DNA of 38,899 nucleotides from Polyangium jinanense (GTDB lineage: Bacteria > Myxococcota_A > Polyangia > Polyangiales > Polyangiaceae), in the NCBI RefSeq assembly GCF_028435265.1, contig NZ_JAGTJK010000012.1, positions 1 to 38,899 on the forward strand, given 5' to 3'. This document shows positions 13,811-31,645 of the stretch, in pieces; the stretch's first letter is position 1, and each line of letters opens with the position of its first letter. A program made the position numbers and the translations under genes. The notes beneath the pieces were generated by a model. It searched no databases, was not told where the DNA came from, and saw only the letters and a program-made list of their open reading frames with translations.

Positions 13811-13913
13811 GGCCAGGCACGCGCCGTCCCCTGTCGATCCGCCGGAGGACTGCTGCTTCGGCGGGTCTTGGGATACCCCGTCGTTGCGGACATGTACTAT
13901 CTCTGCACTCGCG

Positions 13914-16091
13914 ATGTCCGTGCTCGGCACCAACCAGCGTGTCGCTGATCGCCTGCTCTCCGACGGCCGGATCGCGGCCGAGGAGCATCGGCGCGCCGTG
14001 GATCACGCGAGCCGTCAGCGCGGCCGGATCGAGGATTCGCTCATCGAGCTCGACATCCTGCCCGAGGGAGATCTCCTCAAGTACGTCGCGACGCTGCACA
14101 ACACGCGGTTCGTCTCGACCGAAAAGCTCGCGAAGGCCGCGATCGAGCCGCGCGTGCTCGGACGCGTCTTGCCGAAGACCGCGAAGATGCACGGCGTCTT
14201 TCCGGTGCTGCTCGACGAGGCGAAGTCGGTGCTCTCCGTCGTCACCGCGGATCCCGACAACGACGCTGCGATCCACGAGGTGAAGCTCGCGGCGGGCGTG
14301 CGCGAAGTGCGCGCGCTCGTGGCTCGGCCGGCCGCGGTGCGCGCTGCGATCGCGCGGCATTACTTCAAGGAGGTTTCCGCCTTCGAGGCGCTCCTCCGTC
14401 CGGTCGCGACGAACGCCCAGACCGGCGACTTCATCGACATCGAGCTCGGCCCCGCGCCGGCGCGCCCTGCGACGGGGCCCATTCCTTCGCCGGCTGCGTC
14501 GCCGCGCAACCCGGGCGTGCAGGCGCCGCCGCCGCCGCGCGCGCCGATGCCCACGTCTCCCTCCGCGACCGGACAAACCAGCCCCACCGGCGCGCGTGAG
14601 CAGACGCAGCCCTCGGTGCACACGGGCAGCACACAGCCTTCCCTGAACGGCGGCCACGCGCCGATCACGGCGACCGCGCAGACGTCGCCGAGTGGAGGGC
14701 AACCGCCGACCACGCAGGTGCGTGCGTTGACGGGGACCGCGCCTTCGCCCACGCCGCCGCCGCCTCCGGTCCCGATCCTCACGCCGATCGAGACGCACGA
14801 GTACATCGAGACGCTCAACGTCCTCGTGAGCTTGCTCGAAGCGAACCGCCAGGATCTGCGTGGTCACTCGGCTGTCGTCGCGCGCCTCTGCCGCCGCACG
14901 TGCGAGCGCATCGGCCTCGCGCCTGCGCACGTCGCCGCGTTTGTCGTGGCTGCGTACCTGCACGATCTCGGCAAGATGGGCGCGTATCACCTCACCGCGC
15001 TGAACGTCGCCGAGTACGAGGGACATCGCGTCGCGGGCCTCAAGGCCGTCGCGCTCCCGGCGCAGCTCATGGGGTCCGTGGGCCTGCCGGCGGAGACCGT
15101 GGCCGCGCTCCAGGCCATGTACGAGCGGTACGATGGCCGCGGCTTGCCGCATGGCCTCGCGGGCAAGGAGATCCCGCTCGGCGCGCGTATCCTCGCCGTC
15201 GCGGACACCTACGCCGACCTCACGCAGAACCCGCGCAACCCCTTCCGCAAGATCCTCCGCCCGGCCGAGGCGTGCGACGTGCTCGCCGGGTATCGCGGCA
15301 CCGTCTTCGATCCGAACATCGTCGACCTCTTCCGTCACGAGGTCACGGGCGACGACATGCGCGCGCGGCTTTTGTCGGAGCGGTACACGGTGCTCGTCAT
15401 CGATCCGGATCCCGAGGAGACCACGGTGCTCGAGCTTCGCCTCATCGAGCAGGGCTTCGAAGTGCGCGTCGCGCGGACCGTGGCGCAGGCGTGGCGCGAG
15501 CTCGAAGGCGGCGAGATCGCGGCCGTCGTCAGCGAGATCGACCTCGAGGAGCCGGAGATGGGCCTCGCGCTCCGTGCCGACGCGCAGAAGGAGTCGTGGG
15601 GACGCGGGATCACGTGGGTGATCCTCACGCGCAAGAACGACCGCCACAGCGCGCAGAAGGCCTTTGATCTCGGCGTCGACGACTTCGTCTCGAAGCCGAC
15701 GTCCGCGGACATCTTCGCGGCAAAACTCCGTCAGCTCGTGGAGCGCCGTGTCGCGCGCGGCGGTGGGCGCGGCGTGACCGGATCGCTCGCGGAGATGAGC
15801 ATCCCGGACATGGTCCAGGTTCTCTGGCATGGCCGCAAGACGTGCGCGCTCCGGATCCAGACGGGCAAGGGCACGGGCGAGATCCACTTCGCCGAGGGGC
15901 AGGTCGTGGACGCGCGCTGGGAGCAGGTCGTCGGCGAAGAGGCCTTCTACCGGATGCTCGCGCTGAACGAGGGCGAGTTCCGGCTCGAACCGGGCGTCGA
16001 GCCTTCGGGGCGCACGATCGCCGTATCGCCCGAGGCGCTCTTGCTCGAAGGCATGCGCCGCCTCGACGAGGGCATGCTGCACGCTCCGTAA
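13914..16091 (+). CDS. Multidomain c-di-GMP-related signalling protein: MshEN (T2SSE_N) - Pro-rich linker - degenerate HD-GYP - REC - DUF4388
   Basis: N-terminus RVADRLLSDGRIAAEEHRRAV...RIEDSLIELDILPEGDLLKYVATLH fits the two tandem MshEN/GspE-N c-di-GMP-binding motifs. HD domain GHSAVVARL...LHDLGK. HD-GYP motif IV/V region reads MYERYDGRGLP instead of HHExxDGxGYP. Receiver-like segment YTVLVIDPDPEE...VVSEIDLEE...VILTR...VSKP. C-terminal SLAEMSIPDMVQVLWHGRKTCALRIQTGKGTGEIHFAEGQVVDA...GEFRLEPG matches DUF4388. Start uncertain (TTG 13884 opens the ORF; first ATG 13914). Confidence 0.85.
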   Translation: MSVLGTNQRVADRLLSDGRIAAEEHRRAVDHASRQRGRIEDSLIELDILPEGDLLKYVATLHNTRFVSTEKLAKAAIEPRVLGRVLPKTAKMHGVFPVLLDEAKSVLSVVTADPDNDAAIHEVKLAAGVREVRALVARPAAVRAAIARHYFKEVSAFEALLRPVATNAQTGDFIDIELGPAPARPATGPIPSPAASPRNPGVQAPPPPRAPMPTSPSATGQTSPTGAREQTQPSVHTGSTQPSLNGGHAPITATAQTSPSGGQPPTTQVRALTGTAPSPTPPPPPVPILTPIETHEYIETLNVLVSLLEANRQDLRGHSAVVARLCRRTCERIGLAPAHVAAFVVAAYLHDLGKMGAYHLTALNVAEYEGHRVAGLKAVALPAQLMGSVGLPAETVAALQAMYERYDGRGLPHGLAGKEIPLGARILAVADTYADLTQNPRNPFRKILRPAEACDVLAGYRGTVFDPNIVDLFRHEVTGDDMRARLLSERYTVLVIDPDPEETTVLELRLIEQGFEVRVARTVAQAWRELEGGEIAAVVSEIDLEEPEMGLALRADAQKESWGRGITWVILTRKNDRHSAQKAFDLGVDDFVSKPTSADIFAAKLRQLVERRVARGGGRGVTGSLAEMSIPDMVQVLWHGRKTCALRIQTGKGTGEIHFAEGQVVDARWEQVVGEEAFYRMLALNEGEFRLEPGVEPSGRTIAVSPEALLLEGMRRLDEGMLHAP

Positions 16092-16252
16092 GGGGCGTTT
16101 CCCCTCCGCTTTCTTTTGCGAATCTCCAGCCGTTGTCGGTCCGTGGAGCGTCGAGACGCGTAGAGTGAAAAGGCTACGCGCCTTCATGGGGGGTCGCGTA
16201 GCGGAAGCGTCCCTCGCTCGGCCTTGCCGGGCCCTTGCCTTGGAGGATCGTG

Positions 16253-17626
16253 ATGAAGCTCCTTCGCGCCCTCGCCTTGTCCTTGCCCTTCCTCGTGGTG
16301 CCCGCCCTCTACGCGACCGATTCGAATGCGTGTGGCGGGTGCTTCATCACCCAGCAGGAGACCACGCAGGTCACGGGCCACCGCATGGTTCTTTCGATCT
16401 CGAACGATCGGACGACCCTTTGGGATCAAATCACCTACGCGGGGGATCCGTCCTCGTTCGCGTGGCTCCTGCCGATCAAGGGGCAGGTCGACATCGGGCT
16501 CTCGTCCGACGCGGTCTTTGGCGCGCTCGAACAGGCCACACAGGTCTCGGTCCTCTCGCCCTCGATCAACTGCCTTCCGCCCGACTGCGTGGGCGCGCCG
16601 AGCGCGGGCGGCGACAACGACTCGGGCTCGGGCGGCGCGGGCGGCGGCGTCGAGGTCATCGCCGAGGAGGTCGTCGGCCCGTACGCGACCGTGCAGCTCT
16701 CGTCGCAGGATCCGAACGCGCTCGCGAACTGGCTGCTCTCGAACGGCTACAACATCCCGCCCGACATCAAGCCGATCGTCGACGCGTACGTGAACGAGGG
16801 CTTCGACTTCCTCGCCCTCAAGCTCGTGCCTGGCCAGGGCATCAACTCGATGCGCCCCGTGCGCGTCACCTCGCTCGGCGCGGTCCCGGTCCTGCCGCTG
16901 CGCATGGTCGCCGCGGGCACGGGCGCGCTCACGCCGATCACGCTCTGGGTCCTCGGCGAGGGCCGCTACGAGCCGACGAACTTCCCGAGCTTCCAGATCA
17001 AGCCCGCGGATCTCGTGTGGAACTGGGACACGCAATCGAGCAACTACAAGGACCTCAAGCAGCAGAGCTTCGACACGTCGGGCGGCAAGGCGTGGCTCGT
17101 CGAGGCGGGCGAGCCGCTCTCGCGTTACTGGATCGAGGACAATCTCAAATACACGGCCGAGTTCGACCCCGAGAACAGCGGCTACGGCGGCGATCCGATG
17201 GGCCCGAGCGCGCTCGAGGAATGCGTGGAGGACATGGCCGCGCTCTTCGGCGCGATCCCCGAAAACAACCTCTGGGTGACTCGCATCCACGCGGAGCTCT
17301 CGCGCGAGGCGCTGAAGACCGACCTCACGCTGGGCGCGTCGAACGACCAGTCGTACGTCGAGCGATGGCTCCAGGTCACGACCGCCGTCGGCACGCCGCC
17401 CGCGTGTCCGCCGCCGCCGGAGTGGTGCTCCGACCCGGGCGGGCCGATCACCGACCCCGACGTGAACCCCTGGGACAATGGCTTCGGCGTGGGCGAGGAC
17501 GACCCGAACCCGGGCTCGAAGAGCGCGGGCTGCGCCGTCGGCGGCGAGGCGGGCATGCCCGCGGCGCTCGGGCTCCTGGGCGGCGCGATGTTGCTTTCGG
17601 TCGCGCGCCGCCGTCGCCGCCGGTGA
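16253..17626 (+). CDS. Secreted cell-surface protein with MYXO-CTERM sorting signal (DUF2330-like)
   Basis: Signal peptide MKLLRALALSLPFLVVPALYA (GGAGG 7 nt upstream of ATG 16253). C-terminus SAGCAVGGEAGMPAALGLLGGAMLLSVARRRRRR has the Cys motif, hydrophobic span and Arg tail of the MYXO-CTERM tripartite signal. Body resembles DUF2330 family from memory (not verifiable here). Confidence 0.8.
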   Translation: MKLLRALALSLPFLVVPALYATDSNACGGCFITQQETTQVTGHRMVLSISNDRTTLWDQITYAGDPSSFAWLLPIKGQVDIGLSSDAVFGALEQATQVSVLSPSINCLPPDCVGAPSAGGDNDSGSGGAGGGVEVIAEEVVGPYATVQLSSQDPNALANWLLSNGYNIPPDIKPIVDAYVNEGFDFLALKLVPGQGINSMRPVRVTSLGAVPVLPLRMVAAGTGALTPITLWVLGEGRYEPTNFPSFQIKPADLVWNWDTQSSNYKDLKQQSFDTSGGKAWLVEAGEPLSRYWIEDNLKYTAEFDPENSGYGGDPMGPSALEECVEDMAALFGAIPENNLWVTRIHAELSREALKTDLTLGASNDQSYVERWLQVTTAVGTPPACPPPPEWCSDPGGPITDPDVNPWDNGFGVGEDDPNPGSKSAGCAVGGEAGMPAALGLLGGAMLLSVARRRRRR

Positions 17627-17776: not shown

Positions 17777-18718
17777 ATGTACGGTCCCAAAGGTCAGAGC
17801 AGTGGCGGTGGACGTCCGTCTGCGGCTCCCAAGAAGATCACCGTGCCGGACATTCGCGCGCGGAAGGCAGGCGGGCCGCCGATCGCGATGGTGACGGCCT
17901 ACGACTTCACGATGGCGCGACTGCTCGACGAGGGCGGCGCGGACATGCTGCTCGTCGGCGATTCGCTCGGCATGGTCGTGCAAGGGCACCCGACGACGCT
18001 GCCTGTGACGGTCGAGGAGATTTGCTACCACGGCCGCGCCGTCGCGCGCGGGGCGCGGCGCGCGCATGTGGTCGGGGACCTACCGTTCATGAGCTTCCAG
18101 CTCTCGCCCATGCAGGCGCTCGAGAGCGCGGGCCGCTTGATGAAGGACGGCGCGTTCGAGAGCGTGAAGATCGAGGGCGGCGAGGAGGTGGCCGAGCACG
18201 TGCGCCGCATCGTCACGGCGGGCATTCCGGTGTGCGCGCACATCGGGCTCACGCCGCAGTCGGTGCACGCGATGGGCGGCTTCAAGGTGCAGGGCAAGGG
18301 CGACGACGCCGCGGCGCGGCTCGTGCGGGACGCGCAGGCGCTCGACGAGGCTGGCGCGTACGCGATCGTGCTCGAAGCGATCCCGCCGGATCTCGCGGAG
18401 GAGATCACGGCGGCCGTGTCTGTCCCGACGATCGGCATCGGCGCGGGCGCGGGGTGTGATGGGCAGGTGCTCGTCTGTTACGACATGCTCGGCATGTACC
18501 CGGATCTGCGCCCGCGCTTCGCGAAGCGTTTCGCCGAGGTGGGCGAGCAGATCATGGCGGCGACGCGGGCGTACGTGGAGGAGGTGCAAGCGCGCACGTT
18601 CCCCGGCGCCGAGCACAGCTTCAAGCCGAACGGCCCGCGCCGCATTCCGCCGCCGGCCGAGCCCGCGGCCGCGACCGCGGTGCTGGAGGAGATCCCTCCG
18701 CACTGGCAGACGCATTGA
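17777..18718 (+). CDS. panB: 3-methyl-2-oxobutanoate hydroxymethyltransferase (ketopantoate hydroxymethyltransferase)
   Basis: ITVPDIRARKAGGPPIAMVTAYDFTMARLLDEGGADMLLVGDSLGMVVQGH...KIEGG...PVCAHIGLTPQS is the PanB signature. RBS GGAGGAAATC before ATG 17777. Roughly 35-aa Pro-rich C-terminal tail. Confidence 0.9.
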   Translation: MYGPKGQSSGGGRPSAAPKKITVPDIRARKAGGPPIAMVTAYDFTMARLLDEGGADMLLVGDSLGMVVQGHPTTLPVTVEEICYHGRAVARGARRAHVVGDLPFMSFQLSPMQALESAGRLMKDGAFESVKIEGGEEVAEHVRRIVTAGIPVCAHIGLTPQSVHAMGGFKVQGKGDDAAARLVRDAQALDEAGAYAIVLEAIPPDLAEEITAAVSVPTIGIGAGAGCDGQVLVCYDMLGMYPDLRPRFAKRFAEVGEQIMAATRAYVEEVQARTFPGAEHSFKPNGPRRIPPPAEPAAATAVLEEIPPHWQTH

Positions 18719-18769
18719 GGTTTGGCGGGGGCGGGCCCGGGATCGGAGCCTGCCCCCGCGCTTTCGGCG

Positions 18770-19789
<1,020 letters not shown>

Positions 19790-19831
19790 GTCCTCACGCC
19801 TCCGAAGCGAGAACGGCGATGCTACCGCGGT

Positions 19832-21865
19832 TCAGACCGTCGTGGACGCCGAACCCTCGCGCTTTTGCCCCACCGCGCGCAGGAACAGCTCCAGCACGAC
19901 GAGCCCGAGCAGCCCGAGCGCGACGTAGGGCGACGCGTCGATCGAGGGCACGACGCCGCCGAGCGCCTCGGCACGCGCCGCGTCGATCACGCGCCGCGGG
20001 CGCAGATCGATCTCGCGCTCGGGGACGGTCGCGACGCGGATCGCGCGCTCGCCGTCGAGACGCACCTCGTACCGACCCCGCAGCGGCGCCACGGCGCGGC
20101 GGCGTCCGTCCTGCTCCACGACCGGGATCGGCCGCCGCGCTTCGCCTGTGCGGAGCGGCAATCGCTCGATCGACACGTCCTTGAACCCGTCGAACGTGAA
20201 CGCGTCGCCGACGTCGATCTGCCGCGCCCCGCCCCGCGCCCGCGCCGTGCCCACGAAGCGGTCGAGCAGGGCGAGGAATGCCGGCCGCAGGACGAAGTCG
20301 CTCTCGTCCACGGTGAGCGGCAGCGAGAGCGCGAAGACGGCGCCGCGGCCGAGCGAGCGGCGCAGGAGCAGGGGCGCGCCGTCGTCCCAGCGCGCGAGCA
20401 TGTCCGCGTTCGTCGCGGCGGCCGGATCGAAGGACGCGCGTCCGTCGGGCGAGAGCTTGCCGAGGCCCTCCGCGCTCGGCCCGAAAAACACCGCGCTCGC
20501 GGGATCGGCGCCCTGGGACGGACTCGGCCCCCAGCGCACCACGCCTGGCACGAGCGGATCGAACCCCGCCCCGAGTGGCGCTGTCGCCGCGCGCGGCCCG
20601 AACGTCAAGAGCAGCACGCCCCCGCGCTCGACCCACGCCGAAAGCGAGCGCCGACCCTCCGGCGTGAAGCCCGGCACGTCATCGACGATGAGCCCGGCAA
20701 ACGCGGCGAGCTCATCCGCGTGGTCCGGCACCGCGGGCAGCGGCCGCACCTCCGCGTCGAGGTGCATCGCCGTGAGGGCCTGCTCGATCGGCGGCGGCCC
20801 GCCCGTGGCCACGTGCGTCGAGGCCACGTCCACCACGACCGCGATTGGCAGCGCCCCGCCGGCCGGCACGACCGGGGCCTCGTCGTCCTCCAGGATCGCG
20901 TCGCCCGGCGTCAGCCCGACCGTCAGGTCCTCCGGCGCTCCTTCCGGCACGTCGAGCGCGACCTCCTCGGCGCGGACGGACGGCCCGAGCGGCGCCGACG
21001 CGAGCACCTTCCCCTCGGCCCGCAGCTCCACCGCGCGGCCCGCCGAGGCCGAGATCACCGCCGCGCCCTCGCCGGCCGGCCGCGCCTCGGGGCTGCACAC
21101 GACCCGCGCCCGCACCTTGCCCGAGCGCAGATCCGCGCGTGTCACGGCGCAATCGCGGTCTGTGGCTTCGAGCTCCGGCAGCGGCACCCACAACGTCGTG
21201 TCCGAGCCGCCGCCGAGGGGCGTGGCGTTCGGCGCTCCATCGGCGAGGTCGCTCAGGAGCACCACCCGCCGATCGGCGTGCGGAACGCTGCGCAGAAGCT
21301 CCCGCGCCAGGGCCAGCGCGCCATCCAGATCCGTCGCGCGATCCGACGGCTCGATCCCATCGAGCGCGCCCGTCACGGCCGCCATGTTCGTCGTGGACGC
21401 GAGTGCCACGCGCGCGGGCGCGCCCCCGAGGACCACGGCCACCGCATCGCCGCTGCGCAGGCCCGTGGCGAGCTCGCGCGCCGAGGCGAGGGCCCGATCG
21501 AACTTCGTCCGTTTCCCCGGCGCGGCCGTTCCGCCCTCCAGCGGCGCGCGCATGCTCAGCGAATCGTCGATCACGATCGCGAGCGCCACCGAGGCTCCGT
21601 CTTTTCGCTCCAGGCCGAGCCGCGCGCACCGCACGAACGGCGTCGCGCCGAGCACCGCGAGCAAGAGCACGCTGAGCGCTCGCACCGCGAAGAGCGAGCG
21701 ATCCTCCAGCATGCTCCGCCGCCGGGCCAATGGCTTCGTCGGCGGAACGAGCTTCGCGGGCGGGAAGGGTTGCTCCTCGGCTTGCCTTCGCCGGAGCAGG
21801 TGCGCTGCGACCGGCGCGGCGACGAGCAGCGCCACGAGCAGCGCGGCGATCGTGGCGAAGCTCAT
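19832..21865 (-). CDS. BatA-like vWA-domain membrane protein (aerotolerance-operon type)
   Basis: N-terminus MSFATIAALLVALLVAAPVAAHLLRRRQAEEQPFPP...RSLFAVRALSVLLLAVLGATPF matches the BatA N-terminal double-TM domain. vWA MIDAS motif VIDDSLSM. Start overlaps the upstream DUF58 stop (ATGA). Confidence 0.85.
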   Translation of the reverse strand: MSFATIAALLVALLVAAPVAAHLLRRRQAEEQPFPPAKLVPPTKPLARRRSMLEDRSLFAVRALSVLLLAVLGATPFVRCARLGLERKDGASVALAIVIDDSLSMRAPLEGGTAAPGKRTKFDRALASARELATGLRSGDAVAVVLGGAPARVALASTTNMAAVTGALDGIEPSDRATDLDGALALARELLRSVPHADRRVVLLSDLADGAPNATPLGGGSDTTLWVPLPELEATDRDCAVTRADLRSGKVRARVVCSPEARPAGEGAAVISASAGRAVELRAEGKVLASAPLGPSVRAEEVALDVPEGAPEDLTVGLTPGDAILEDDEAPVVPAGGALPIAVVVDVASTHVATGGPPPIEQALTAMHLDAEVRPLPAVPDHADELAAFAGLIVDDVPGFTPEGRRSLSAWVERGGVLLLTFGPRAATAPLGAGFDPLVPGVVRWGPSPSQGADPASAVFFGPSAEGLGKLSPDGRASFDPAAATNADMLARWDDGAPLLLRRSLGRGAVFALSLPLTVDESDFVLRPAFLALLDRFVGTARARGGARQIDVGDAFTFDGFKDVSIERLPLRTGEARRPIPVVEQDGRRRAVAPLRGRYEVRLDGERAIRVATVPEREIDLRPRRVIDAARAEALGGVVPSIDASPYVALGLLGLVVLELFLRAVGQKREGSASTTV

Positions 21866-22797
21866 GCGCGCGCCTCGGCCACGGCGCGCACCACTTCGCG
21901 CACCACGTCGGCGGGAGGCTTGTCCGTGACAGACTCCACCCAGCGCCCGCCCCTTCCGGAAAGCTCCGTCGACCAGCGCTCGGCGATCCCGGCGAGCCGC
22001 TCGCGGTAGACCGCGCGCACCTCCTCGGCGTCGGTCTCCACGACCACGTCGCCCTCGCTCGCGCGGAGCCGCACGTGCCCGGAGAAGCCGAGATCCGCCT
22101 CGTTCGGGTCGAGCACCCGCAGCGCCACGAGCGAGCGCCCGCCGGCTGCGAGCGCCGAAAATGCCGACAGCGCCCGCTCCGGCAGGTCCACGAAATCGCT
22201 CACGAGCACGATCACCGCGCCTCGCCGCGCCCGCCGTGCCACCGGGGCGAGGGCCCGCTCCATCGCCGCCTCGTCCGTGCTCGCGTCACCCGCGGCCGCG
22301 GCCCCTTCGAGCGCCCCGGCCACCCGATCGAACGCCTCGCGCCCGCTCGACGCTGGCAGCGGCAGCGTCCCGCGCCCGCCGATCCACGCGAGGCCCACGG
22401 GATCCCCCGTCGACAGCGCCACGCGTGCCAGCGCCGCGGCCACGAGCGCCCCGTAGGCGAGCTTCGCGCCTGGGGCCCGGCTGCTGCGGTAGGCCATCGA
22501 CGCCGTCGCGTCCACACAGAGCCAGAGCGCGCGATCCGTCTCCGTCTCGAACTCGCGCACCATCATCCGGTCGTGCCGGAGCAGCGCGCGCCGGTCGAAG
22601 AACCGGAGATCGTCGCCGGGCACGTAGGGCCTGTGCCCGCCGAACTCCACGCCGGGCCCTTTGCGCACGCTCCGGTGCCCGCCGGCGTAGACGCCCTCGG
22701 CCAGCGTCCGGGCCCTGAGGCGCAGCGGCGCGAGGCTACCCCAGTCGATGGGGATCCCATCTCTTCCGGAGCGCGACGAAGGGCGAAGCTCGGCCAT
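21862..22797 (-). CDS. DUF58-family protein (vWA-like; normally partner of a MoxR AAA+ ATPase)
   Basis: GIPIDWGSLAPLRLRARTLAEGVYAGGHRSVRKGPGVEFGGHRPYVPGDDLRFFDRRALLRHDRMMVREFE is the DUF58 signature block. Start set at ATG 22797 (conserved block begins 12 aa later) rather than the ORF-track start 23067. Confidence 0.85.
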   Translation of the reverse strand: MAELRPSSRSGRDGIPIDWGSLAPLRLRARTLAEGVYAGGHRSVRKGPGVEFGGHRPYVPGDDLRFFDRRALLRHDRMMVREFETETDRALWLCVDATASMAYRSSRAPGAKLAYGALVAAALARVALSTGDPVGLAWIGGRGTLPLPASSGREAFDRVAGALEGAAAAGDASTDEAAMERALAPVARRARRGAVIVLVSDFVDLPERALSAFSALAAGGRSLVALRVLDPNEADLGFSGHVRLRASEGDVVVETDAEEVRAVYRERLAGIAERWSTELSGRGGRWVESVTDKPPADVVREVVRAVAEARA

Positions 22798-22863
22798 GGG
22801 GACGGTTGAATTAGCCCAACACGACGGGCCCGCCACGACAAAACTTGTGGCAAGGAGAGGACC

Positions 22864-23265
22864 GTGCGCGTGTTCTTCTGCGGCCCTTTCCGCGTGTTCC
22901 TCCTCGCCGCGTTCCTCCCGGCGTGTCGCGGCGGCGACGCCCCCGAGGCCACGCCCGCGCCCGCTCCCCCCGATACCGCATTCTCCGCCGCGCCCTCGGC
23001 CGCGCCCCCGCGCCGCCCGACGATTCGCCATTACCTCGCCCGCACGGCCGAGCGATGCGAGGTTCATTCGGTCGACCGGGACGTCGTCTCCCCGGCCACG
23101 CAGACCCCTTGCCCGCAGGATTTACAGGTCGGCGAGCGCATTCGCGTGATGGGGAAATCGTGTTTGCGGGAGGGGAGCACCGAGCGGACGCAGCCGGTGG
23201 TTTGTCCGGGGGCGCTGCTTTCGGCGGCGCGGGAGCCTCCGGGTCCGGACGGCGGGGCGCCCTGA
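22864..23265 (+). CDS. Small putative lipoprotein (133 aa)
   Basis: GTG start 22864 preceded by AAGGAGAGG. N-terminus MRVFFCGPFRVFLLAAFLPAC (signal plus non-canonical lipobox LPAC). Non-repetitive body with 4 further Cys. Confidence 0.4.
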   Translation: MRVFFCGPFRVFLLAAFLPACRGGDAPEATPAPAPPDTAFSAAPSAAPPRRPTIRHYLARTAERCEVHSVDRDVVSPATQTPCPQDLQVGERIRVMGKSCLREGSTERTQPVVCPGALLSAAREPPGPDGGAP

Positions 23266-23266
23266 A

Positions 23267-24268
23267 TCAGCACCCCCCACGCAGCGCCAGGCGGAGCGGC
23301 TTCGCCACGGAGTCCGCGCCGAACCGGCGTGTTTCGATGATGGGCGAGTCGCACTCCACCAGCATGACCTGATGCACCAGCGCGCCCTCGCCGGTGCGCA
23401 CCACAGTGCTCTTCAGCCGCGTCGCGCGCCAGGGAACCCAGGCCTCGGCGCCGTCGTCGCAGCGCACGGGGGCATAACGCAGCATGAACGGACGGATCAA
23501 GTCCTTGTGCGACGCCGAGAACACGCGTCCACGGGGGAGCTTGCAGCGCGACTCTAGCGCCGCAATGGCACGCTCCCGCCGCTCTCTCTGTTCGGGCAGG
23601 CTGACCCATTTCTGCGCGAGTGCCTCGTCGAGAGCCTCTTCGGTCTTCTCGAGATCTTCTTTCGAGAACGCGGCCGTATCCTCGGCGAGCTCGACCGCGC
23701 TTGAGCGACTGTCCTTCGGCTGGATTTTTCGCGACGCTGCGTCCTCGGGCGAGGCGAGCTCGACGAGCTCGGTCGGACCGGACAAGCGCGCCTGATATTG
23801 CTCGGCCTGGTCCTTGCGCTCGAAGAGCCCAGCCACGACCGCGAGCCCTTTGCGCTTGGGATCGGCGAGCGGCAGATCGTCCAGCGTCGTGACGAACGGG
23901 TATCCCGTCGCGAGCTCCCCGGTCCCCCCGCTGCGGAGTGCCGCTTCGGCCGCATGGGCGTCGACGGCGACGCCGAGGAAGAGTGCATAACGCGGCGCGC
24001 TTTTCTTGCATTCCTCGTCGAGATAAACATCGAGGTGGCAGAAGCCAGCCGGCAAGACATCCTCGGCGGGGATGGGGCGCAGCGCCAGCGTGGGTGCTGG
24101 AGGCGGAGCGGTCGCGGCGGACGCCGGCGCGGCGCTGGTCGTGGAAGCGGTACTCGGCAGGGTTGCTGCCCTGGGGACGACCTGCTGTCCGGCATTGGAT
24201 GACGAGCACGCCGACAGGGACAGGGATACGCACAGCACGACGGTGAATGGCAGGGCAGGTCGATCCAT
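23267..24268 (-). CDS. Putative lipoprotein, unknown function (334 aa)
   Basis: MDRPALPFTVVLCVSLSLSAC lipobox signal then Ser/Thr/Ala/Pro-rich linker and a mixed-composition, Lys/Glu/Phe/Tyr-containing body. The overlapping 413-aa ORF in another frame is Arg-rich and rejected. Upstream in-frame ATG 24322 possible. Confidence 0.6.
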   Translation of the reverse strand: MDRPALPFTVVLCVSLSLSACSSSNAGQQVVPRAATLPSTASTTSAAPASAATAPPPAPTLALRPIPAEDVLPAGFCHLDVYLDEECKKSAPRYALFLGVAVDAHAAEAALRSGGTGELATGYPFVTTLDDLPLADPKRKGLAVVAGLFERKDQAEQYQARLSGPTELVELASPEDAASRKIQPKDSRSSAVELAEDTAAFSKEDLEKTEEALDEALAQKWVSLPEQRERRERAIAALESRCKLPRGRVFSASHKDLIRPFMLRYAPVRCDDGAEAWVPWRATRLKSTVVRTGEGALVHQVMLVECDSPIIETRRFGADSVAKPLRLALRGGC

Positions 24269-24325
24269 GAGGAAAGGCGCTACCACGAGAGATCGGGGAG
24301 CGCAATTCTCACGCCTTGCCACGGC

Positions 24326-24366
24326 TCACGAGAGCAGCTACCCACCTCGCATGCGCGTCGCTTCCG
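24326..24366 (+). repeat. Leader/start-codon repeat, copy A (5' end of BNR lipoprotein gene)
   Basis: ctcacgagagcagctacccacctcgcATGcgcgtcgcttcc. 36/41 identical to copy B at 25038-25078. Confidence 0.6.
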
Positions 24367-24968
24367 TTCTGCTGTTGCTCGCGGGCGTCTTTTCCTGCGC
24401 AATCACCCCCCCGGCCAGCGCTCCCCCGCGTTCCCGCGGGTCGGGGATCGAGCCCGCGACACGAGCATCGCCCGAGGTCCCGGCCGATGAGGTCCGCTTT
24501 CGTCTCCCGCTCCCGCCGCCGGAAACGGGCCGCCTCGTCTTCTTCGATGTCCGCCCCGACCCGCTGCACAGCTTTCCTGCCGTCGCGATCGAGAGCGCCG
24601 GACGTCCGGTGCAGACGGTCGTGCTCGACGGCCCTGACAACGAGCAAATGGGTTGGGAGGCCGTCGCGCGGGCCGGCGAGGCTTCCCGCGAGGTCATCGG
24701 CGTCCTGGACAATCGAATCGAGTCGCCGGGCTGGGACCTGGTCATCGTTGCTTCGACCGATTCCGGCCGCACCTGGGCGCGCCGTGCGACCCTCCGCAAG
24801 GTCTACTACATGGCAACGGTGGAGTCGCTGATTGCGCGATCGCGGGATCATTTCGATCTCGTCCTCCGGCTCGACGACGACTATGGCGCAGGCGTCGCGC
24901 CCGGCCGATATGTCGCTTCGACCGAGGACCGGGGATCTTCGTGGTCTCCGTTCGTCATTGCGCGTTGA
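24351..24968 (+). CDS. Small secreted/lipo-protein with two BNR (Asp-box) motifs
   Basis: MRVASVLLLLAGVFSCAI signal. STDSGRTW and STEDRGSSW match the SxDxGxTW BNR/Asp-box consensus. ORF-track start 24072 is upstream, within the opposite-strand lipoprotein gene (23267..24268), so ATG 24351 was chosen. Confidence 0.55.
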   Translation: MRVASVLLLLAGVFSCAITPPASAPPRSRGSGIEPATRASPEVPADEVRFRLPLPPPETGRLVFFDVRPDPLHSFPAVAIESAGRPVQTVVLDGPDNEQMGWEAVARAGEASREVIGVLDNRIESPGWDLVIVASTDSGRTWARRATLRKVYYMATVESLIARSRDHFDLVLRLDDDYGAGVAPGRYVASTEDRGSSWSPFVIAR

Positions 24969-25037
24969 CGCCAGACTTCCAGCCATGTCGCCCCTGAAGG
25001 CGAAGGCCAGGAAAGAACGCCCCGCTGTCCGGCATTC

Positions 25038-25101
25038 TCACGAGAGCAGCGACCCGCCTCGCATGCGCGTCCGCTCCCTGTTTTCACGCTGGACTGCGTA
25101 G
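25038..25101 (+). repeat. Leader/start-codon repeat, copy B, with 13-codon truncated ORF (MRVRSLFSRWTA*)
   Basis: ctcacgagagcagcgacccgcctcgcATGcgcgtccgctcc, then stop at 25099-25101. Preceded by attctcacg as in copy A. Confidence 0.6.
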
Positions 25102-25638
25102 GCCTCCCGCTCCCGCCCTACGCTGGTTCGTGGAACACACGCCCGGGCCACCCGGCCGCCCCCTGTTTCGCGGAAAAGCTCTGACCGTCGTCGCGTCCGC
25201 CGACGGTTCGGCTCCGTGACCGTCCCGGGCTCGACCTCCGCGCTGGAATTCCTTTGCGAAACAGCGCCGGGCCGTCTCGCCAGCCAGCCGTTGTTTTCCG
25301 CAACCACGCCGGGACGCGGACGCGGCCCATCGTTGTTTCTGCCGGAAGCGACGAGGGCCCGAGCGCCGATCCTGTCCTGCCGCGGAACGATTCCCGGCCC
25401 GCCGCGCTTCTCCCCGTTCGGCAGCCGAACAGGCCCCGTCCTCCGAGGCCCGAGCCAGTCTGGGCGGCTTCGAAAGGATGTGCTCGGCGCGCCGTTGCTG
25501 TCTCACGGGCTCGCTTCCCTCGACATCAACGGAACACGATAGCGTCCCATGCTCTGCACCCACCCACGCCGAGCTGGCGTGGCGTGGTCCGTCACATTTG
25601 TCTTGACCGTCCATGGCGGCCTGGGTAGCGTCCCCACG

Positions 25639-26560: not shown

Positions 26561-27718
26561 ATGGCGCGTACCCTCCCAACCTTGGCGATCAGGGTTCAGG
26601 GGAAAATCGGCGACAAATACGAGCTCTCCGCCGTCCTCGGAGAGGGGGCGATAGGCACGGTCTACGCCGCGAAGAACCTGCGAACCGGCCGGCGCGTGGC
26701 GATCAAGTCGCTGCGGGGGAGCGTCCTCGACCCGCGGGATCCCGAGCTTTTGCGCTTCGACCAGGAGGCGCGCATCGCGGGTTCGCTCGAATCGGAGCAC
26801 ATCGCCCAGGTGCTCGACATCGAGCGGGATCCCGCCACGGACGCCCCGTTCCTCGTGATGGAACTGCTCCGCGGGGAGGACCTGCAATCCCTCCTCGACA
26901 GGGTCGGCCCCTTGCCGGTCGACGTGGCTTTGCGGATCGCGGCGCAGGTTTGCGCGGGGCTCGCGGCGGCGCATGCGGCGGGCGTGGTGCATCGGGACAT
27001 CAAGCCCGGCAATCTCTTTCTCGCGCGGCGGGAAGGCGGCGCAATCGTGGTCAAGATCCTCGATTTCGGCCTCGCCAAGATCCGGCGCCTCCCGCCGGAT
27101 CTTTCCACGAGCGCCGCGCCTTCGGCCCTCTCGGCGCCGCAGCAGTCCATGACCGAGACGGGGCAGCTCCTCGGCTCGCCGCTTTACATGTCGCCGGAGC
27201 AGCTCGACGGCGCGAAAGGCATCGACGCACGCAGCGACCTGTTTTCGCTGGCGGTGACGCTGTTCGCGATGCTCACCGGAAAGCCGCCGCATGCGGACGT
27301 CAAATCGTTCCCCTTGCTGCTCAACCATATCGCGACGAAGCCGATGCCCACGGTGCGCGAGGTCGTGCCGGGGGTCGGCCCCGACGTGGAGGCGCTCCTC
27401 GAACGGGCGTCACGGCTTTCGCGTGAAGAACGGTTCTCCAGCGCGGCGGCGATGCGCGAAGCGATGAAGCCCCTCTTGCCGGGAGGCATGGCGCTGCGGG
27501 AGGACATGCTCGTCGGCCGCAGGGACGCGTCCAGCGAGGTGGGCATGACCCACATGGAGAGCGATTCGTACGCCATGATCGAGCGCGCGGTGGCCGAGGA
27601 ACGGGCCCCGACGGAGGCGACGGTCTCGTCGCGCCCCCGGCGATGGCCTGTGTGGCTCGGGATCGCCGTCGTCCTGGTGGCGGCGGTCGTGATGGCCCTC
27701 GGGCTCCTTGGGCGCTAA
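26561..27718 (+). CDS. Ser/Thr protein kinase with C-terminal transmembrane anchor
   Basis: Hanks kinase motifs: GEGAIGTVYAA, AIK, HRDIKPGNLFL, DFGLAK, SPEQ. C-terminal WPVWLGIAVVLVAAVVMALGLLGR TM helix. Confidence 0.9.
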   Translation: MARTLPTLAIRVQGKIGDKYELSAVLGEGAIGTVYAAKNLRTGRRVAIKSLRGSVLDPRDPELLRFDQEARIAGSLESEHIAQVLDIERDPATDAPFLVMELLRGEDLQSLLDRVGPLPVDVALRIAAQVCAGLAAAHAAGVVHRDIKPGNLFLARREGGAIVVKILDFGLAKIRRLPPDLSTSAAPSALSAPQQSMTETGQLLGSPLYMSPEQLDGAKGIDARSDLFSLAVTLFAMLTGKPPHADVKSFPLLLNHIATKPMPTVREVVPGVGPDVEALLERASRLSREERFSSAAAMREAMKPLLPGGMALREDMLVGRRDASSEVGMTHMESDSYAMIERAVAEERAPTEATVSSRPRRWPVWLGIAVVLVAAVVMALGLLGR

Positions 27719-27726
27719 GGAGGGGC

Positions 27727-29445
27727 ATGAACCAGCGGGAAATCCTTGCTTTTATCGACCGGCTCCGGAAGGCGAGGACCTTCGAGGACGCCGCGCACAC
27801 CTTGCTGCGCGCGATGCTCGACGCGGCGCTCGCGGCGCTCGCGGAGAGCGGCTTCGCCGGCCGCGGCAAGATCCTCCGCGGCATGGCGCACTGGCGGCCC
27901 GGCGACGGCTACCGGCGACTGGTCCTTCTCGACGATACGCAGCGCGGCGGCGAGCCGACCATCAACTATTTGCCCTCCGTGAGCGCGTGGCGCTGGGTCG
28001 TCACGCGCGAATGCCCCATTGCGATCGACGTCCCGCTCGGTCGCGTATGGACGTGGCAAAACGAATCCGCGAACCTGTTCCAGGAGGGCGGATTTTCCGG
28101 TCAGGACAGCGTGCTTCGGCTGACGAGCCGCGACACGAGCCACCTCTACGCGATCCCGCTGCGCACCCTGCACGGCGCGATCGAGGGAATGGCCACGGTC
28201 GAGGCGGGGTGCCCGAGGGCCGTCGGCGACGATTTCATCTTCCCGGCCATTCACGAATCACTGGAGCTCCTCGCCGACCTCGCGGCGCCTTACCTCGCGA
28301 CCCTTCCGCCCCGGCCCGCGGCGACTGGCGCGACCGACGATCTCTTGCCCGTCATGGGCCAGAGCATGGCGGGCTTGATCGACATGCTCCGCGTCTTCGC
28401 GCAGCAGGAGGAGACCCTGCTCATCGGCGGTCCCACGGGTGCGGGCAAATCGCGCCTCGCGCGCTGGTGCCACGCGCGATCGGTCCGGCGTGAGGCGCCC
28501 TTCGAGGTCCTCGACCTCATCGCCGTGCCCGAAGAGCTGCAAATGGCGGAGCTCTTCGGCTGGAAAAAGGGCGCGTTCACGGGCGCGGTGCGCGACACGC
28601 CCGGGTGCATCACGCGGGCCTTCAAGGGGACGTTGTTCATCGACGAGATCGACAAACTCTCGCTGAAGGCGCAGGCGGGATTGCTCCAGCTCCTCGAATC
28701 GCGCACGTATCGCCCGATCGGGGACGGCGCGCGCGAGCAGCAGGCGAACGTGCGTTTCATCGTGGGGAGCAACGTCGACCTGTACGACCAGGTGAAGGCC
28801 GGACGGTTCCGGGAGGATCTTTATTATCGGATCAACGTGCTCCCGGTGCAGATCCCCCCGCTCGACGAGCGCCGGGACGAAATTGCGGAATGGGCGCGCT
28901 TCATGGCCTCGAGGCGCCATCGCGAATCGGTGCCGGGCGGGGAAGCGCGGATCGCGGCGGGCGTGGAGACGCTTCTCGGTGAGCATGCCTGGCCGGGCAA
29001 TTTGCGTCAGCTCGACAACGTCGTTCGCCGGGCCTATGCGCTCGCGCTCATGACGCACGGTGAGGCAGGGTCGGAGATCTTGCTGGAGGAAAAGCATTTC
29101 GCGCGCGCCCTGAGCTACGAGCGGGGGAGCGGGCGAAGGTCGACGCTCGACGACCTGCGCGTCGCGGCGGGCGCGATCGTGGAAGAGGCCGAGCGGCAGC
29201 AGGGAAAGGGCCTCGTGTTCGACCTGGATCTCTGCGATGCATTCCGCGGCCTCGTGCTCGGCACGGCGGTGGAGCGGCTCGGTAGCCGGGACGCGGCGTT
29301 CCGGCTTTTCGGGAAGGGCGCGCAGGTGCAGGCGCGCAATCACCACAAGATGCTGCGGCGCGAGCTGGAGAAGGTCGAGGCGCTTTGCAAGGCGCTCGGG
29401 GAGGAGAGCGGGCCCTTTCGGGAGCTGAGGGACGACGAGGCCTGA
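27727..29445 (+). CDS. Sigma-54-dependent transcriptional activator (bacterial enhancer-binding protein) with GAF-like N-terminal sensor domain
   Basis: Walker A GGPTGAGKS, GAFTGA sigma-54 contact loop (KGAFTGA), Walker B LFIDEID, arginine finger region REDLYYRINV. Perfect SD AAGGAGGGG immediately before ATG 27727. Starts 9 nt after the kinase stop. Confidence 0.9.
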   Translation: MNQREILAFIDRLRKARTFEDAAHTLLRAMLDAALAALAESGFAGRGKILRGMAHWRPGDGYRRLVLLDDTQRGGEPTINYLPSVSAWRWVVTRECPIAIDVPLGRVWTWQNESANLFQEGGFSGQDSVLRLTSRDTSHLYAIPLRTLHGAIEGMATVEAGCPRAVGDDFIFPAIHESLELLADLAAPYLATLPPRPAATGATDDLLPVMGQSMAGLIDMLRVFAQQEETLLIGGPTGAGKSRLARWCHARSVRREAPFEVLDLIAVPEELQMAELFGWKKGAFTGAVRDTPGCITRAFKGTLFIDEIDKLSLKAQAGLLQLLESRTYRPIGDGAREQQANVRFIVGSNVDLYDQVKAGRFREDLYYRINVLPVQIPPLDERRDEIAEWARFMASRRHRESVPGGEARIAAGVETLLGEHAWPGNLRQLDNVVRRAYALALMTHGEAGSEILLEEKHFARALSYERGSGRRSTLDDLRVAAGAIVEEAERQQGKGLVFDLDLCDAFRGLVLGTAVERLGSRDAAFRLFGKGAQVQARNHHKMLRRELEKVEALCKALGEESGPFRELRDDEA

Positions 29446-29450
29446 GCGCC

Positions 29451-29545
29451 CCGGGCTCCGCGTCCACGGATGACGCACGCGCGTACCTACGTTACGCGCG
29501 CCGAGCCTCGCTCGGGCCCCGCGTCCGAGCGAGGCTCGGGTGCAC
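29451..29545 (+). repeat. Double-dyad intergenic element, copy 1 (candidate enhancer/UAS)
   Basis: Dyad A CGCGCGTA-cctacgt-TACGCGCG (29478-29500). Dyad B CCGAGCCTCGCTCGG-gccccgcgt-CCGAGCGAGGCTCGG (29501-29539, perfect 15-bp arms). About 85% identical to 31447-31545. Confidence 0.6.
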
Positions 29546-29560
29546 GCAGCTCTCGCGTGT

Positions 29561-29577
29561 CGGCATGCGGGTTGCTT
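29561..29577 (+). promoter_or_regulatory. Candidate sigma-54 (-24/-12) promoter for astacin-propeller gene
   Basis: cGGCATGcgggTTGCTt versus consensus TGGCACG-N4-TTGCW. GG at 29562-63 and GC at 29574-75 (12-nt spacing). About 64 nt upstream of ATG 29641. Confidence 0.55.
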
Positions 29578-29640
29578 TGCGGCTATCCGCACCGCGAGCA
29601 ACGCGGCCCAACACAGTATCCCGCTGGAGCTTCGACACCC

Positions 29641-31431
29641 ATGAAACGTTATCATTCCATGGCGATTGCCATCGCGTCGGTCCTTGCCGTTTCCTACTCG
29701 TCGACCGGCTGCTCTGGCCCGGCCGAACCCTCCGCCGAGGAAAACGTTCAGACGGACGTGGCCCCGCTTTATGTAGCCTCGTCGAAGCTGTGGAGCGGAG
29801 AGTCCGTCCAGGTCTGCTGGGAAAACCCCAGCGCGGCGCCTCAAGCCGAGAGAGACTGGGTCAGACAAGCCGTCCTCGCGTCGTGGGACGCCCACACGCG
29901 GGTGGATTTCAATGGCTGGGGTACATGCACCAGCTCGTCGAATGGAATTCGCATCCGAATCTCCGATGAAGGCCCACACACAGATGGCCTCGGCACCGAT
30001 CTCGACGGCGAAACGGATGGTATGGTATTGAACTTTACCTTCCAAAACTGGTCCCCGGACTGTCAGAACTCGCGCCGGTTCTGCATCGAAGCAATCGCGG
30101 TGCACGAGTTCGGGCACGCGCTCGGATTCGCTCACGAGCAGAATCGGCCCGACACCCCGTCGTGGTGCGATGAGGAGCAGGGGAGCGACGGTGACCTCAC
30201 GCTAAACTTGTGGGATCTGGATTCGGTGATGAATTACTGCAATCCGGAATGGAACGGCAACGGCACGCTCAGCGAGAGCGACATCCAGGGCGCGATCCAG
30301 ATGTACGGCACTCCGCGATGGATAACGGAGTACGGCTATGTTCAGGGATGGCGTGTGGACAAGCACCCGCGTATGATGGCGGACGTCGACGAGGATGGAA
30401 AGCAGGATGTCGTCGCATTCGGCGATGCGGGGACGCTCGTGTCCAGGTCCACCGGGACCGGCTTCATGGCGCCGGAACTATGGGTGGACCAATATAATTA
30501 CAATCACGGCTGGCGCACCGAATATCACGAGCGGATGATGGCGGATGTCAACAACGATGGGAAGCCGGACGTGGTCGGCTTTGGGGACGCAGGCGTGCTG
30601 GTCTCGCTCTCGACGGGAAGCTCGTTTACGGCGCCGTCACTCTGGGTCGGCGATTATGGCTGGAATCAGGGCTACCGCGTGGACAAGCACCCGCGCATGA
30701 TGGCCGACGTCAACAACGATGGGAAGCCGGACGTCGTCGCTTTCGGGGACAATGGCGTGGTGGTCTCGCTCTCGACGGGAAGTTCGTTCACGGCGCCGTC
30801 GCTCTGGCTCGCCAATTACGGCTACAATCATGGCTATCGCATCGACCAGCACCCACGCATGATGGCCGACGTCAACAACGATGGGAAACAAGACGTCGTC
30901 GTCTTTGCCAACAACGGCGTGTACGTGGCGCTCTCGACGGGAAGCTCCTTCTCGACGCCATCGCTTTGGGTCGGGAATTATGGTTACAACCACGGCTACC
31001 GCGTGGACATGCATCCGCGGATGACGGCCGATGTCAACGGCGACGGGAAGCAGGACATCGTTGCCTTCGGTGACAACGGCGTGGTCGTGTCTACCTCGAC
31101 GGGAAGCTCCTTCACGACGCCCCAGCTCTGGGTCAACAGATTCGGGTATAATCAAGTCGGATGGCGCGTGGAACAGCACCCGCGCATGATGGCGGATGTA
31201 GACAATGACGGGAAAGATGACGTGGTCGGCTTTGGGGGCAACGGCGTTTATATCTCGCGCTCTACCGGGAGCTCGTTCGAGCTGCCGAGCCACCTGGTAG
31301 AAGGCTTCGGTTATGATTTCGGATGGCGCGTGGACATGCACCCGCGCATGATGGCGGATATCAATGGTGATGGAACGCAGGACGTGGTCGGCTTTGCAAA
31401 TGAAGGCGTCTTCGTCAGACAGACCTACTGA
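29641..31431 (+). CDS. Secreted lipoprotein: astacin-like zinc metalloprotease domain fused to 7 FG-GAP-like Ca-binding propeller repeats
   Basis: Lipobox signal MKRYHSMAIAIASVLAVSYSSTGC. HEFGHALGFAHEQNRPD matches the astacin signature HExxHxxGFxHEQxRxD. Met-turn SVMNY. Then 7 tandem 54-aa repeats, each with a DxNxDGxxD Ca-binding loop (ADVNNDGKPDVV), FGD.G and STGSSF. Confidence 0.85.
   Translation: MKRYHSMAIAIASVLAVSYSSTGCSGPAEPSAEENVQTDVAPLYVASSKLWSGESVQVCWENPSAAPQAERDWVRQAVLASWDAHTRVDFNGWGTCTSSSNGIRIRISDEGPHTDGLGTDLDGETDGMVLNFTFQNWSPDCQNSRRFCIEAIAVHEFGHALGFAHEQNRPDTPSWCDEEQGSDGDLTLNLWDLDSVMNYCNPEWNGNGTLSESDIQGAIQMYGTPRWITEYGYVQGWRVDKHPRMMADVDEDGKQDVVAFGDAGTLVSRSTGTGFMAPELWVDQYNYNHGWRTEYHERMMADVNNDGKPDVVGFGDAGVLVSLSTGSSFTAPSLWVGDYGWNQGYRVDKHPRMMADVNNDGKPDVVAFGDNGVVVSLSTGSSFTAPSLWLANYGYNHGYRIDQHPRMMADVNNDGKQDVVVFANNGVYVALSTGSSFSTPSLWVGNYGYNHGYRVDMHPRMTADVNGDGKQDIVAFGDNGVVVSTSTGSSFTTPQLWVNRFGYNQVGWRVEQHPRMMADVDNDGKDDVVGFGGNGVYISRSTGSSFELPSHLVEGFGYDFGWRVDMHPRMMADINGDGTQDVVGFANEGVFVRQTY
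30319..31428 (+). repeat. Tandem in-frame coding repeats, period 162 nt (54 aa), about 6.8 copies
   Basis: Repeat starts (Trp codons) at 30319, 30481, 30643, 30805, 30967, 31129, 31291. Units W..YGYNHGYRVD.HPRMMADVNNDGK.DVV.FGDNGV.VSLSTGSSFT.PSL with extended near-identical nucleotide stretches. Confidence 0.85.
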
Positions 31432-31446
31432 GGTCCGCTCCCATCG

Positions 31447-31545
31447 CCCGGAGCTCCGCGTCCACGGATGACGCACGCGCGTACCTACGTTACGCGCGCC
31501 GATCCCCGCTCGGGCCCCGCGTCCGGGCGAGGATCGTGTAGACGC
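31447..31545 (+). repeat. Double-dyad intergenic element, copy 2 (candidate enhancer/UAS)
   Basis: ccggagctccgcgtccacggatgacgcacgCGCGCGTAcctacgtTACGCGCGccgatccccgctcgggccccgcgtccgggcgaggatcg. Dyad A identical to copy 1. Dyad B retains 12/15 symmetry with one compensatory G:C to T:A change. Confidence 0.6.
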
Positions 31546-31591
31546 AGCTTTCACGTGTGCCTTTCGGGCCTGAAGCACCTCCGGACGACCT

Positions 31592-31608
31592 CTGGCACGA
31601 CGGGTGCA
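31592..31608 (+). promoter_or_regulatory. Candidate sigma-54 (-24/-12) promoter for downstream lipoprotein gene
   Basis: cTGGCACGacggGTGCAa. TGGCACG is a perfect -24 element. GC at 31606-07 is 12 nt after the GG. About 27 nt before SD AGGAGG and the TTG start at 31646. Confidence 0.6.
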
Positions 31609-31645
31609 ATGTCCGTGATCGTCACCTTCGACAGGAGGCTCTCTC

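Follow-up and report, generated by a model that had tools for sequence, protein, structure and literature searches.

A conserved DUF58 and BatA-like VWA gene pair with no adjacent MoxR gene in Polyangium jinanense and related Polyangia

The 38,899-nucleotide segment of the Polyangium jinanense genome analysed here (contig NZ_JAGTJK010000012.1, positions 1 to 38,899; referred to below as the window) contains a gene for a DUF58 protein overlapping the start of a gene for a BatA-like membrane protein with a VWA domain. On balance, we favour the view that these two genes constitute a conserved module with coupled translation, which belongs to the Bat/MoxR-associated type but needs no dedicated MoxR ATPase encoded in cis.

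The gene pair and its conservation without MoxR

Both genes lie on the minus strand. The DUF58 gene (positions 21862-22797) encodes a protein of 311 aa that matches Pfam family PF01882 with an E value of 2.3e-37 and a score of 128.8 bits, the cutoff being 23.4 (scored on the open reading frame, ORF, at 21862-23067, which contains the gene). The same family was present in all homologues among the matches listed (n = 120). The family assignment proposed in an earlier note on this DNA is thus well founded. An alternative start at 23067, giving a protein of 401 aa, was dismissed, as the reading frame would run into a divergent gene; the 311-aa version was chosen because orthologues measure 300-314 aa. 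The second gene (19832-21865) encodes a BatA-type VWA membrane protein of 677 aa, for which an AlphaFold2 model was available. Its identity, also suggested in the earlier note, was confirmed by matches to PF07584 BatA (E = 3.4e-10, residues 1-76, 40.6 bits against a cutoff of 25.9), to PF13519 VWA_2 (E = 1.4e-12) and to the NCBIfam model TIGR02226 two_anch, which describes an N-terminal double-transmembrane domain (42.3 bits against a cutoff of 23.05). No specific NCBIfam model matched the DUF58 product or those of the two flanking lipoprotein genes described below. The GC content at third codon positions (GC3) was 0.85 in both main ORFs, a value typical of coding sequence and thus as expected for real genes; the GC content of the window ranges from 0.60 to 0.76. 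In Polyangium sp. 15x6, the counterpart of the DUF58 product (locus L004) is 98% identical, and a "VWA domain-containing protein" is 97% identical to the BatA-like product.

Direct reading of the sequence bore out the predicted overlap between the two genes: the TGA stop codon of the DUF58 gene and the ATG start codon of the BatA-like gene share the tetranucleotide ATGA at 21862-21865 (minus strand; ...GCG CGC GCA TGA GCT TC...), an arrangement implying that their translation is coupled.

In operons with DUF58, VWA and TPR genes, MoxR has been described as standing "at the forefront" (PMC11834572), and a MoxR-first order with DUF58/VWA genes is also reported in PMC12067865 and PMC5700661. All three MoxR loci sampled, from Tsukamurella, Rhizobium and Ralstonia, showed MoxR followed by DUF58 and then by a VWA or other membrane protein, in agreement with the order that the earlier note took to be usual; the Tsukamurella VWA protein also bears BatA_N. 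Neither Pfam scans of large ORFs nor six-frame tblastn revealed a MoxR/AAA_3 gene anywhere in the window, where the sole carrier of an AAA+ domain among large ORFs is a sigma-54 activator (see below) and the best tblastn match of a MoxR probe had an E value of 0.78. The probe had first been validated against plasmid records and control loci. It matched 454 plasmid records (the annotated ones among the 12 shown were "MoxR family ATPase") and detected the three control loci with E values from 1e-59 to 1e-154. The absence of a MoxR ATPase, as originally claimed, thus held for the window. The DUF58 protein itself gave no tblastn match among plasmids at 1e-8.

The search was extended to 88 related loci (86 distinct, approximately 1.5 Mb, with flanks of up to ±10 kb) from Polyangium, Sorangium, Minicystis, Chondromyces, Byssovorax and many metagenome-assembled genomes (MAGs). 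A scan with one genome per species supplied the best 80 of 286 relatives, with 52-98% identity, all from Polyangiaceae/Polyangiales (including Labilithrix). Five loci were added by a profile search with distant members and by context look-ups, which again returned the same subfamily; the DUF58 identity of added loci was 59% for Pendulispora rubella and MAG L085, 63% for MAG L086 and 54% for MAG L091. The most distant member reached (L090) has a DUF58 protein with 43% identity, so that the whole set spans 43-98%. The MoxR probe gave no match at E<=1e-3 in any of these loci. Likewise, no AAA_3 domain was seen in the eight loci with precomputed Pfam annotation, and no AAA_3 gene lies within ±10 kb of the pair in Sorangium cellulosum, Minicystis rosea or Polyangium spumosum. 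The usual context of a DUF58 gene, directly downstream of MoxR (a typical rather than a defining feature), was thus found neither in the window nor in the 88 loci, and the comparison of synteny identified the MoxR-less state as the conserved state of this DUF58 subfamily in Polyangia. The earlier note had called the pair an orphan. This is accurate as regards MoxR, but the pair is no isolated oddity of one genome, since the 88 loci likewise lack the ATPase gene. Literature searches found no paper on a MoxR-less DUF58-VWA clade, and MoxR went unmentioned among the top results of a search on MoxR in myxobacteria.

The association between the two genes themselves is strong yet not absolute. The BatA/VWA gene lies downstream of the DUF58 gene on the same strand in 84/88 loci, and 72 of the 88 retain an NTGA overlap (44 ATGA, 26 GTGA and 2 TTGA), more than chance would account for. 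Among named genera, the sole clear break-up of the pair was seen in Chondromyces apiculatus (L020). The same pair with a 4-nt overlap occurs in S. cellulosum, M. rosea and P. spumosum, where panB lies within approximately 5 kb and the chromosomal neighbourhood is the same; the Sorangium and P. spumosum loci also include rpoC. Clustering of the neighbouring ORFs revealed no third gene family kept throughout the clade and no conserved ATPase. Between Polyangium and Sorangium, identity amounts to 67-70% for the DUF58 protein, 60-63% for the BatA-like protein, 73-80% for PanB and 88-91% for RpoC. The closeness of the DUF58 value to that of PanB argues for purifying selection on a functional core module, as opposed to a decayed operon.

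Architecture of the two proteins

The hydropathy profile of the DUF58 protein shows no hydrophobic segment, and the protein is probably cytoplasmic and soluble. As in other members of the family, an N-terminal signature precedes a VWA-like alpha/beta core that bears a D-x-S/T-x-S ... D motif resembling a MIDAS (an adhesion site dependent on metal ions); in the structural model, the VWA fold carries this motif as D96-x-T98-x-S100 ... D201. The signature segment, with its invariant alignment columns (residues 39-89; 22531-22683, minus strand), reads G-x-H-R-S...G-x-G-x-E-F...R-x-Y-x-P-G-D-D-L-R...R-E-F-E-T-E-T. No other part of the protein is as well conserved, and none is modelled with lower confidence, the predicted local distance difference test (pLDDT) score being below 50 at residues 39-86. 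This coincidence of best conservation with lowest AlphaFold confidence suggests that the segment may fold only on a partner, making it a candidate partner-binding element. Sequence searches of the PDB with the DUF58 and BatA-like proteins returned no relatives.

In the BatA-like protein, the model places a transmembrane (TM) hairpin, the VWA domain, a beta-sandwich, a GATase1-like domain, a second beta-sandwich and a C-terminal TM helix in this order. A classical BatA protein, by comparison, has approximately 330 aa and comprises the hairpin, the VWA domain and a C-terminal TM segment; the additional domains of the 677-aa protein (two beta-sandwiches and the GATase1-like domain) are placed before the C-terminal TM helix. 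The BatA_N/two_anch hairpin (residues 1-79; 21629-21865, minus strand, as are all segments that follow) was recognized by the Pfam and TIGR models and by two hydropathy peaks. The basic loop between TM1 and TM2 (residues 23-57; 21695-21799) contains 9 K/R, and a cytoplasmic location is predicted for it. No segment of the protein is better conserved: 57% of its columns are invariant, as compared with 10-37% in the globular domains. The VWA domain (residues 93-230; 21176-21589), predicted to be periplasmic, contains the complete MIDAS (DxSxS, T, D) of BatA-type VWA domains, formed by D100-D-S102-L-S104 together with T178 and D206. The residues D100, S102, S104, T178 and D206 are invariant in 28 BatA-like orthologues. 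One beta-sandwich holds two invariant cysteines, C239 and C257, which could possibly form a disulfide. The alpha/beta domain resembling GATase1 (residues 330-545; 20231-20878) lies between the two beta-sandwich domains. The BatA-like alignment shows no invariant cysteine within it, for which reason the domain is probably not a catalytic amidotransferase. A hydropathy peak and a model helix (residues 646-672) mark the C-terminal TM helix (residues 646-668; 19862-19930), which is followed by a short basic tail.

The VWA domain of the BatA-type protein BB0173 of Borrelia is periplasmic, and this protein has three TM helices (PMC5700661). By analogy with BB0173 and by the positive-inside rule (the 9 K/R of the loop), the protein from Polyangium is most likely an inner-membrane protein with a periplasmic ectodomain and a cytoplasmic TM1-TM2 loop.

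Neighbouring genes

A gene for a Cys-rich and Ser-rich lipoprotein of 339 aa (18770-19789, minus strand; lipobox AAGC) begins 42 nt past the stop codon of the BatA-like gene, on the same strand. No terminator-like site was found in the 42-nt gap, and a scan of positions 18600-23500 for sigma-70 promoters and terminators returned no promoters and one terminator of chance-level quality, inside a gene. From this arrangement, the lipoprotein gene may be co-transcribed with the pair. Homologues occur in six loci, directly downstream in five Polyangium loci and, as a weaker match, approximately 3 kb further in one other; the gene is a genus-specific addition in Polyangium. In P. spumosum, the orthologue bears the annotation PF26780 DUF8252, a family for which the local Pfam copy gave no match. 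The product has a long low-complexity linker of poly-Ser/Ala followed by repeated Cys-rich units, seemingly of the form C-x-H-x-x-C...C-x-x-C...C-C...W-D...C-V...C, with a central myxobacterial Cys repeat of the CGDGxC type.

The earlier note had the operon continuing into this lipoprotein gene instead of into BatB-D genes. This description applies to the genus Polyangium but not to Sorangium and Minicystis, where the next gene is convergent and unrelated, nor to the deeper branches. In 25 deeper-branching loci (L041, L044, L048, L086, L090, L091 and 19 others), an unrelated lipoprotein of 180-195 aa is encoded directly downstream of the BatA/VWA gene, and in 17 (L039, L050, L051, L061, L084, L085, L091 and 10 others), a gene for a TPR protein of approximately 570-775 aa directly precedes the DUF58 gene. 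The differing lipoprotein and TPR neighbours among lineages mark the wider assembly as Bat-like with lineage-specific accessory parts. The 180-195-aa lipoprotein, absent from the window, has a lipobox of the form ...VGC or ...TGC, a C-terminal ...YRHWPR.F.VT motif and no Pfam match. The TPR protein shows weak TPR matches, and its gene often ends only a few nt before that for DUF58; it is present in Pendulispora rubella and in L085, where the BatA/VWA gene is absent.

Upstream of the DUF58 gene, a divergent gene (22864-23265, plus strand) encodes a small lipoprotein-like product of 133 aa. It starts with a GTG codon following AAGGAG, and the product has a signal-peptide-like N-terminus ending in ...FLPAC; GC3 is 0.81 for the containing ORF. 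There are 10 Polyangium-type loci with homologues, likewise divergent from the DUF58 gene wherever the contig includes both; the divergent lipoprotein gene reported earlier is thus real and kept in Polyangium relatives. Its product has no Pfam or NCBIfam match. The intergenic region separating it from the DUF58 gene measures 66 nt (22798-22863); the pair's promoter is expected within it or next to it.

Beyond the small lipoprotein gene and before a set of coiled-coil/kinase genes, the sequence from 23267 to 25500 is strain-variable and of lower GC content (approximately 0.67). It contains two mutually overlapping antisense ORFs, 23267-24322 on the minus strand (351 aa, lipoprotein-like) and 24072-24968 on the plus strand (298 aa); homologues are found only in Polyangium sp. 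15x6 (L004) and not in other Polyangium loci. On the plus strand between rpoC and panB lie genes for a multidomain response regulator with MshEN, HD/HD_5, receiver and DUF4388/PatA_N domains (13884-16091) and for a DUF2330 protein (16235-17626). The regulator gene is syntenic in Sorangium, Minicystis and Polyangium, the DUF2330 gene in Minicystis, Polyangium and some Sorangium strains. A further plus-strand gene (29470-31431) encodes a 653-aa protein with FG-GAP repeats and a metalloprotease-like (matrixin/astacin) motif. It overlaps the stretch of lowest GC content in the window (30001-32000; GC 0.60-0.62) and may have been acquired horizontally. The best match to a sigma-54 promoter in the window (TGGCACGACGGGTGCA, 31593-31608, plus strand, one mismatch) lies approximately 38 nt upstream of an ORF of 308 aa (31646-32572) with no Pfam match.

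Possible modes of action and significance

We postulate that the DUF58 and BatA-like proteins, made in fixed proportion, would form a complex in which DUF58 docks on the highly conserved basic/acidic TM1-TM2 loop in the cytoplasm. Acidic residues serve as MIDAS ligands in other VWA interactions (PMC9976466), and the invariant acidic residues of the loop, E30/E31 and E54/D55, are plausible ligands of this kind. On the other side of the membrane, the ectodomain with its MIDAS/VWA and GATase1-like domains would bind an envelope ligand, possibly a lipoprotein encoded by a neighbouring gene. The pair might thereby serve across the membrane as a scaffold or as a signalling unit for which an ATPase of its own, encoded alongside, would be unneeded.

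The closest known systems are the MoxR (MRP)-DUF58-VWA operons, represented by mycobacterial moxR1-Rv1480-Rv1481 and the Tsukamurella locus L087. Like the Polyangium locus, they have a DUF58 gene of the same architecture and signature motif and, immediately downstream, a gene encoding a membrane protein that combines a BatA_N hairpin with a MIDAS-containing VWA domain. They differ in that no AAA_3 gene precedes the pair here or in the related loci searched, in that the VWA partner has 677 aa as against 327 and includes the added beta-sandwich and GATase1-like domains, and in that the DUF58 proteins are merely 28-29% identical. Since a canonical actinobacterial MoxR operon has the same order of DUF58 and BatA_N+VWA genes, the coupling of these two appears as the common core and MoxR as the absent part. 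The Bat (aerotolerance) operon of Bacteroides and spirochaetes comprises moxR, DUF58, batA, batB, batC, batD and batE; in contrast, the window contains neither MoxR at the front nor the additional VWA/TPR proteins BatB, BatC, BatD and BatE, and has one long BatA-like protein where that operon encodes several short proteins. What Bat proteins do is itself unsettled, a role in aerotolerance or oxidative stress being disputed even in Leptospira (PMC3557215). The NorQ/NorD, CbbQ/CbbO and RavA/ViaA couples resemble the pair in employing a VWA/MIDAS protein as adaptor, and DUF58 is structurally similar to NorD's VWA domain. However, the VWA partner in these couples is encoded next to the ATPase and acts on a defined soluble or membrane enzyme, whereas the DUF58/BatA-like pair has no ATPase nearby and no known target. 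Finally, stand-alone GATase1-like, ThuA-like and DUF4350 domains (PDB 2gk3, 3rht, 4jqs) are also among the closest known systems, except that the domain is embedded here in a membrane-anchored VWA protein and lacks an invariant cysteine. Overall, the pair can be classed as a variant operon within a known system of uncharacterised function; it deviates from the usual arrangement modestly but consistently.

Several points weigh against an ATPase-independent module. We infer its topology, the physical complex, its ligand and the independence from MoxR, and the membrane part of the BatA-like protein is weakly modelled (pLDDT 38-55, residues 1-80). The two genes lie approximately 2 kb apart on opposite strands in Chondromyces apiculatus, and Pendulispora rubella and two other loci have a DUF58 orthologue with no BatA neighbour. 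Other points bear on the main competing explanation, by which the system is an ordinary MoxR-dependent one with a relocated ATPase gene, so that a MoxR protein of the MRP type remodels DUF58 and/or its membrane partner in trans. We regard this as a less probable, though still serious, possibility. The DUF58 protein keeps every hallmark common to its MoxR-linked homologues, including the signature motif. Furthermore, residues 241-256 form a beta-hairpin in its model; this hairpin could be the equivalent of the "finger" that VWA domains partnering MoxR are proposed to insert into the pore (PMC9976466), in which case an ATPase would still be used. The search covered loci within genomes of 10-16 Mb, which leaves room for a MoxR acting from elsewhere. 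On the other hand, the unlinked state extends to 88/88 loci over the whole range of DUF58 identity while the coupling of DUF58 to BatA is kept; other MoxR/VWA couples are encoded by adjacent genes, as in the three control loci and in the literature (PMC11834572, PMC12067865); and no candidate ATPase for such a role appeared in the loci, which extended up to ±10 kb.

It is improbable that the partner or regulator of the pair is the AAA+ protein whose gene lies a few kb upstream in the opposite orientation, a sigma-54-dependent activator (Sigma54_activat by Pfam; 27643-29445, plus strand). Such an activator gene recurs, divergent from the pair and 1.9-4.8 kb upstream of it, in the window, P. spumosum, Minicystis, Pendulispora, L091 and approximately 20 of the scanned loci (L002, L003 and L084 are among the loci carrying it). 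However, Sorangium has FtsH at that position, and the N-terminal domains of the activators vary (FHA in Minicystis, a receiver domain in Pendulispora and L091). Myxobacteria have a very large number of such activators. Matches to the sigma-54 promoter pattern were at chance level (8 against 9.5 expected); they fell within coding sequence, and none lay upstream of the DUF58 gene. Since such a promoter is missing there and Sorangium lacks the activator, its recurrence probably reflects synteny and not function. As to a decaying, non-functional remnant of a Bat/MoxR operon left after loss of the ATPase, a highly improbable idea prompted by the lack of MoxR and BatB-E in the window and by the different neighbours in different genera, it was ruled out by the near-PanB identity of DUF58, the invariant MIDAS and the conserved TM1-TM2 loop, and is further opposed by the intact state of both ORFs in almost all 88 loci, the conserved NTGA overlap and the GC3 of 0.85.

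Returning to the module lacking a cis-encoded ATPase, a more specific version can be advanced only tentatively, and we consider it rather unlikely as a whole: DUF58 would serve primarily as adaptor to the cytoplasmic loop found in double-TM proteins of the BatA_N type, as opposed to being a MoxR client; the Polyangia pair would be an autonomous, ATPase-free trans-envelope module; the MIDAS-like site of DUF58 would engage an invariant Glu/Asp of the loop (E30/E31 or E54/D55); and the ligand of the periplasmic ectodomain, with its MIDAS and GATase1-like domain, would be a lipoprotein that differs between lineages. If true, this would provide the first functional handle on DUF58. The family is very large (14,310 cluster representatives at E<=1e-3), and, according to a 2025 review, there is nothing to explain how it relates to MoxR (PMC12067865). 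Practical consequences are limited: public genomes already list these genes under generic names, and no phenotype is known. Nevertheless, the Polyangia clade separates two associations that are usually confounded, for the link between DUF58 and a BatA-type VWA protein is kept while MoxR is never nearby. The clade thus points to the contact between DUF58 and BatA_N as the conserved core and provides a natural setting in which to test if the DUF58/BatA system requires MoxR.

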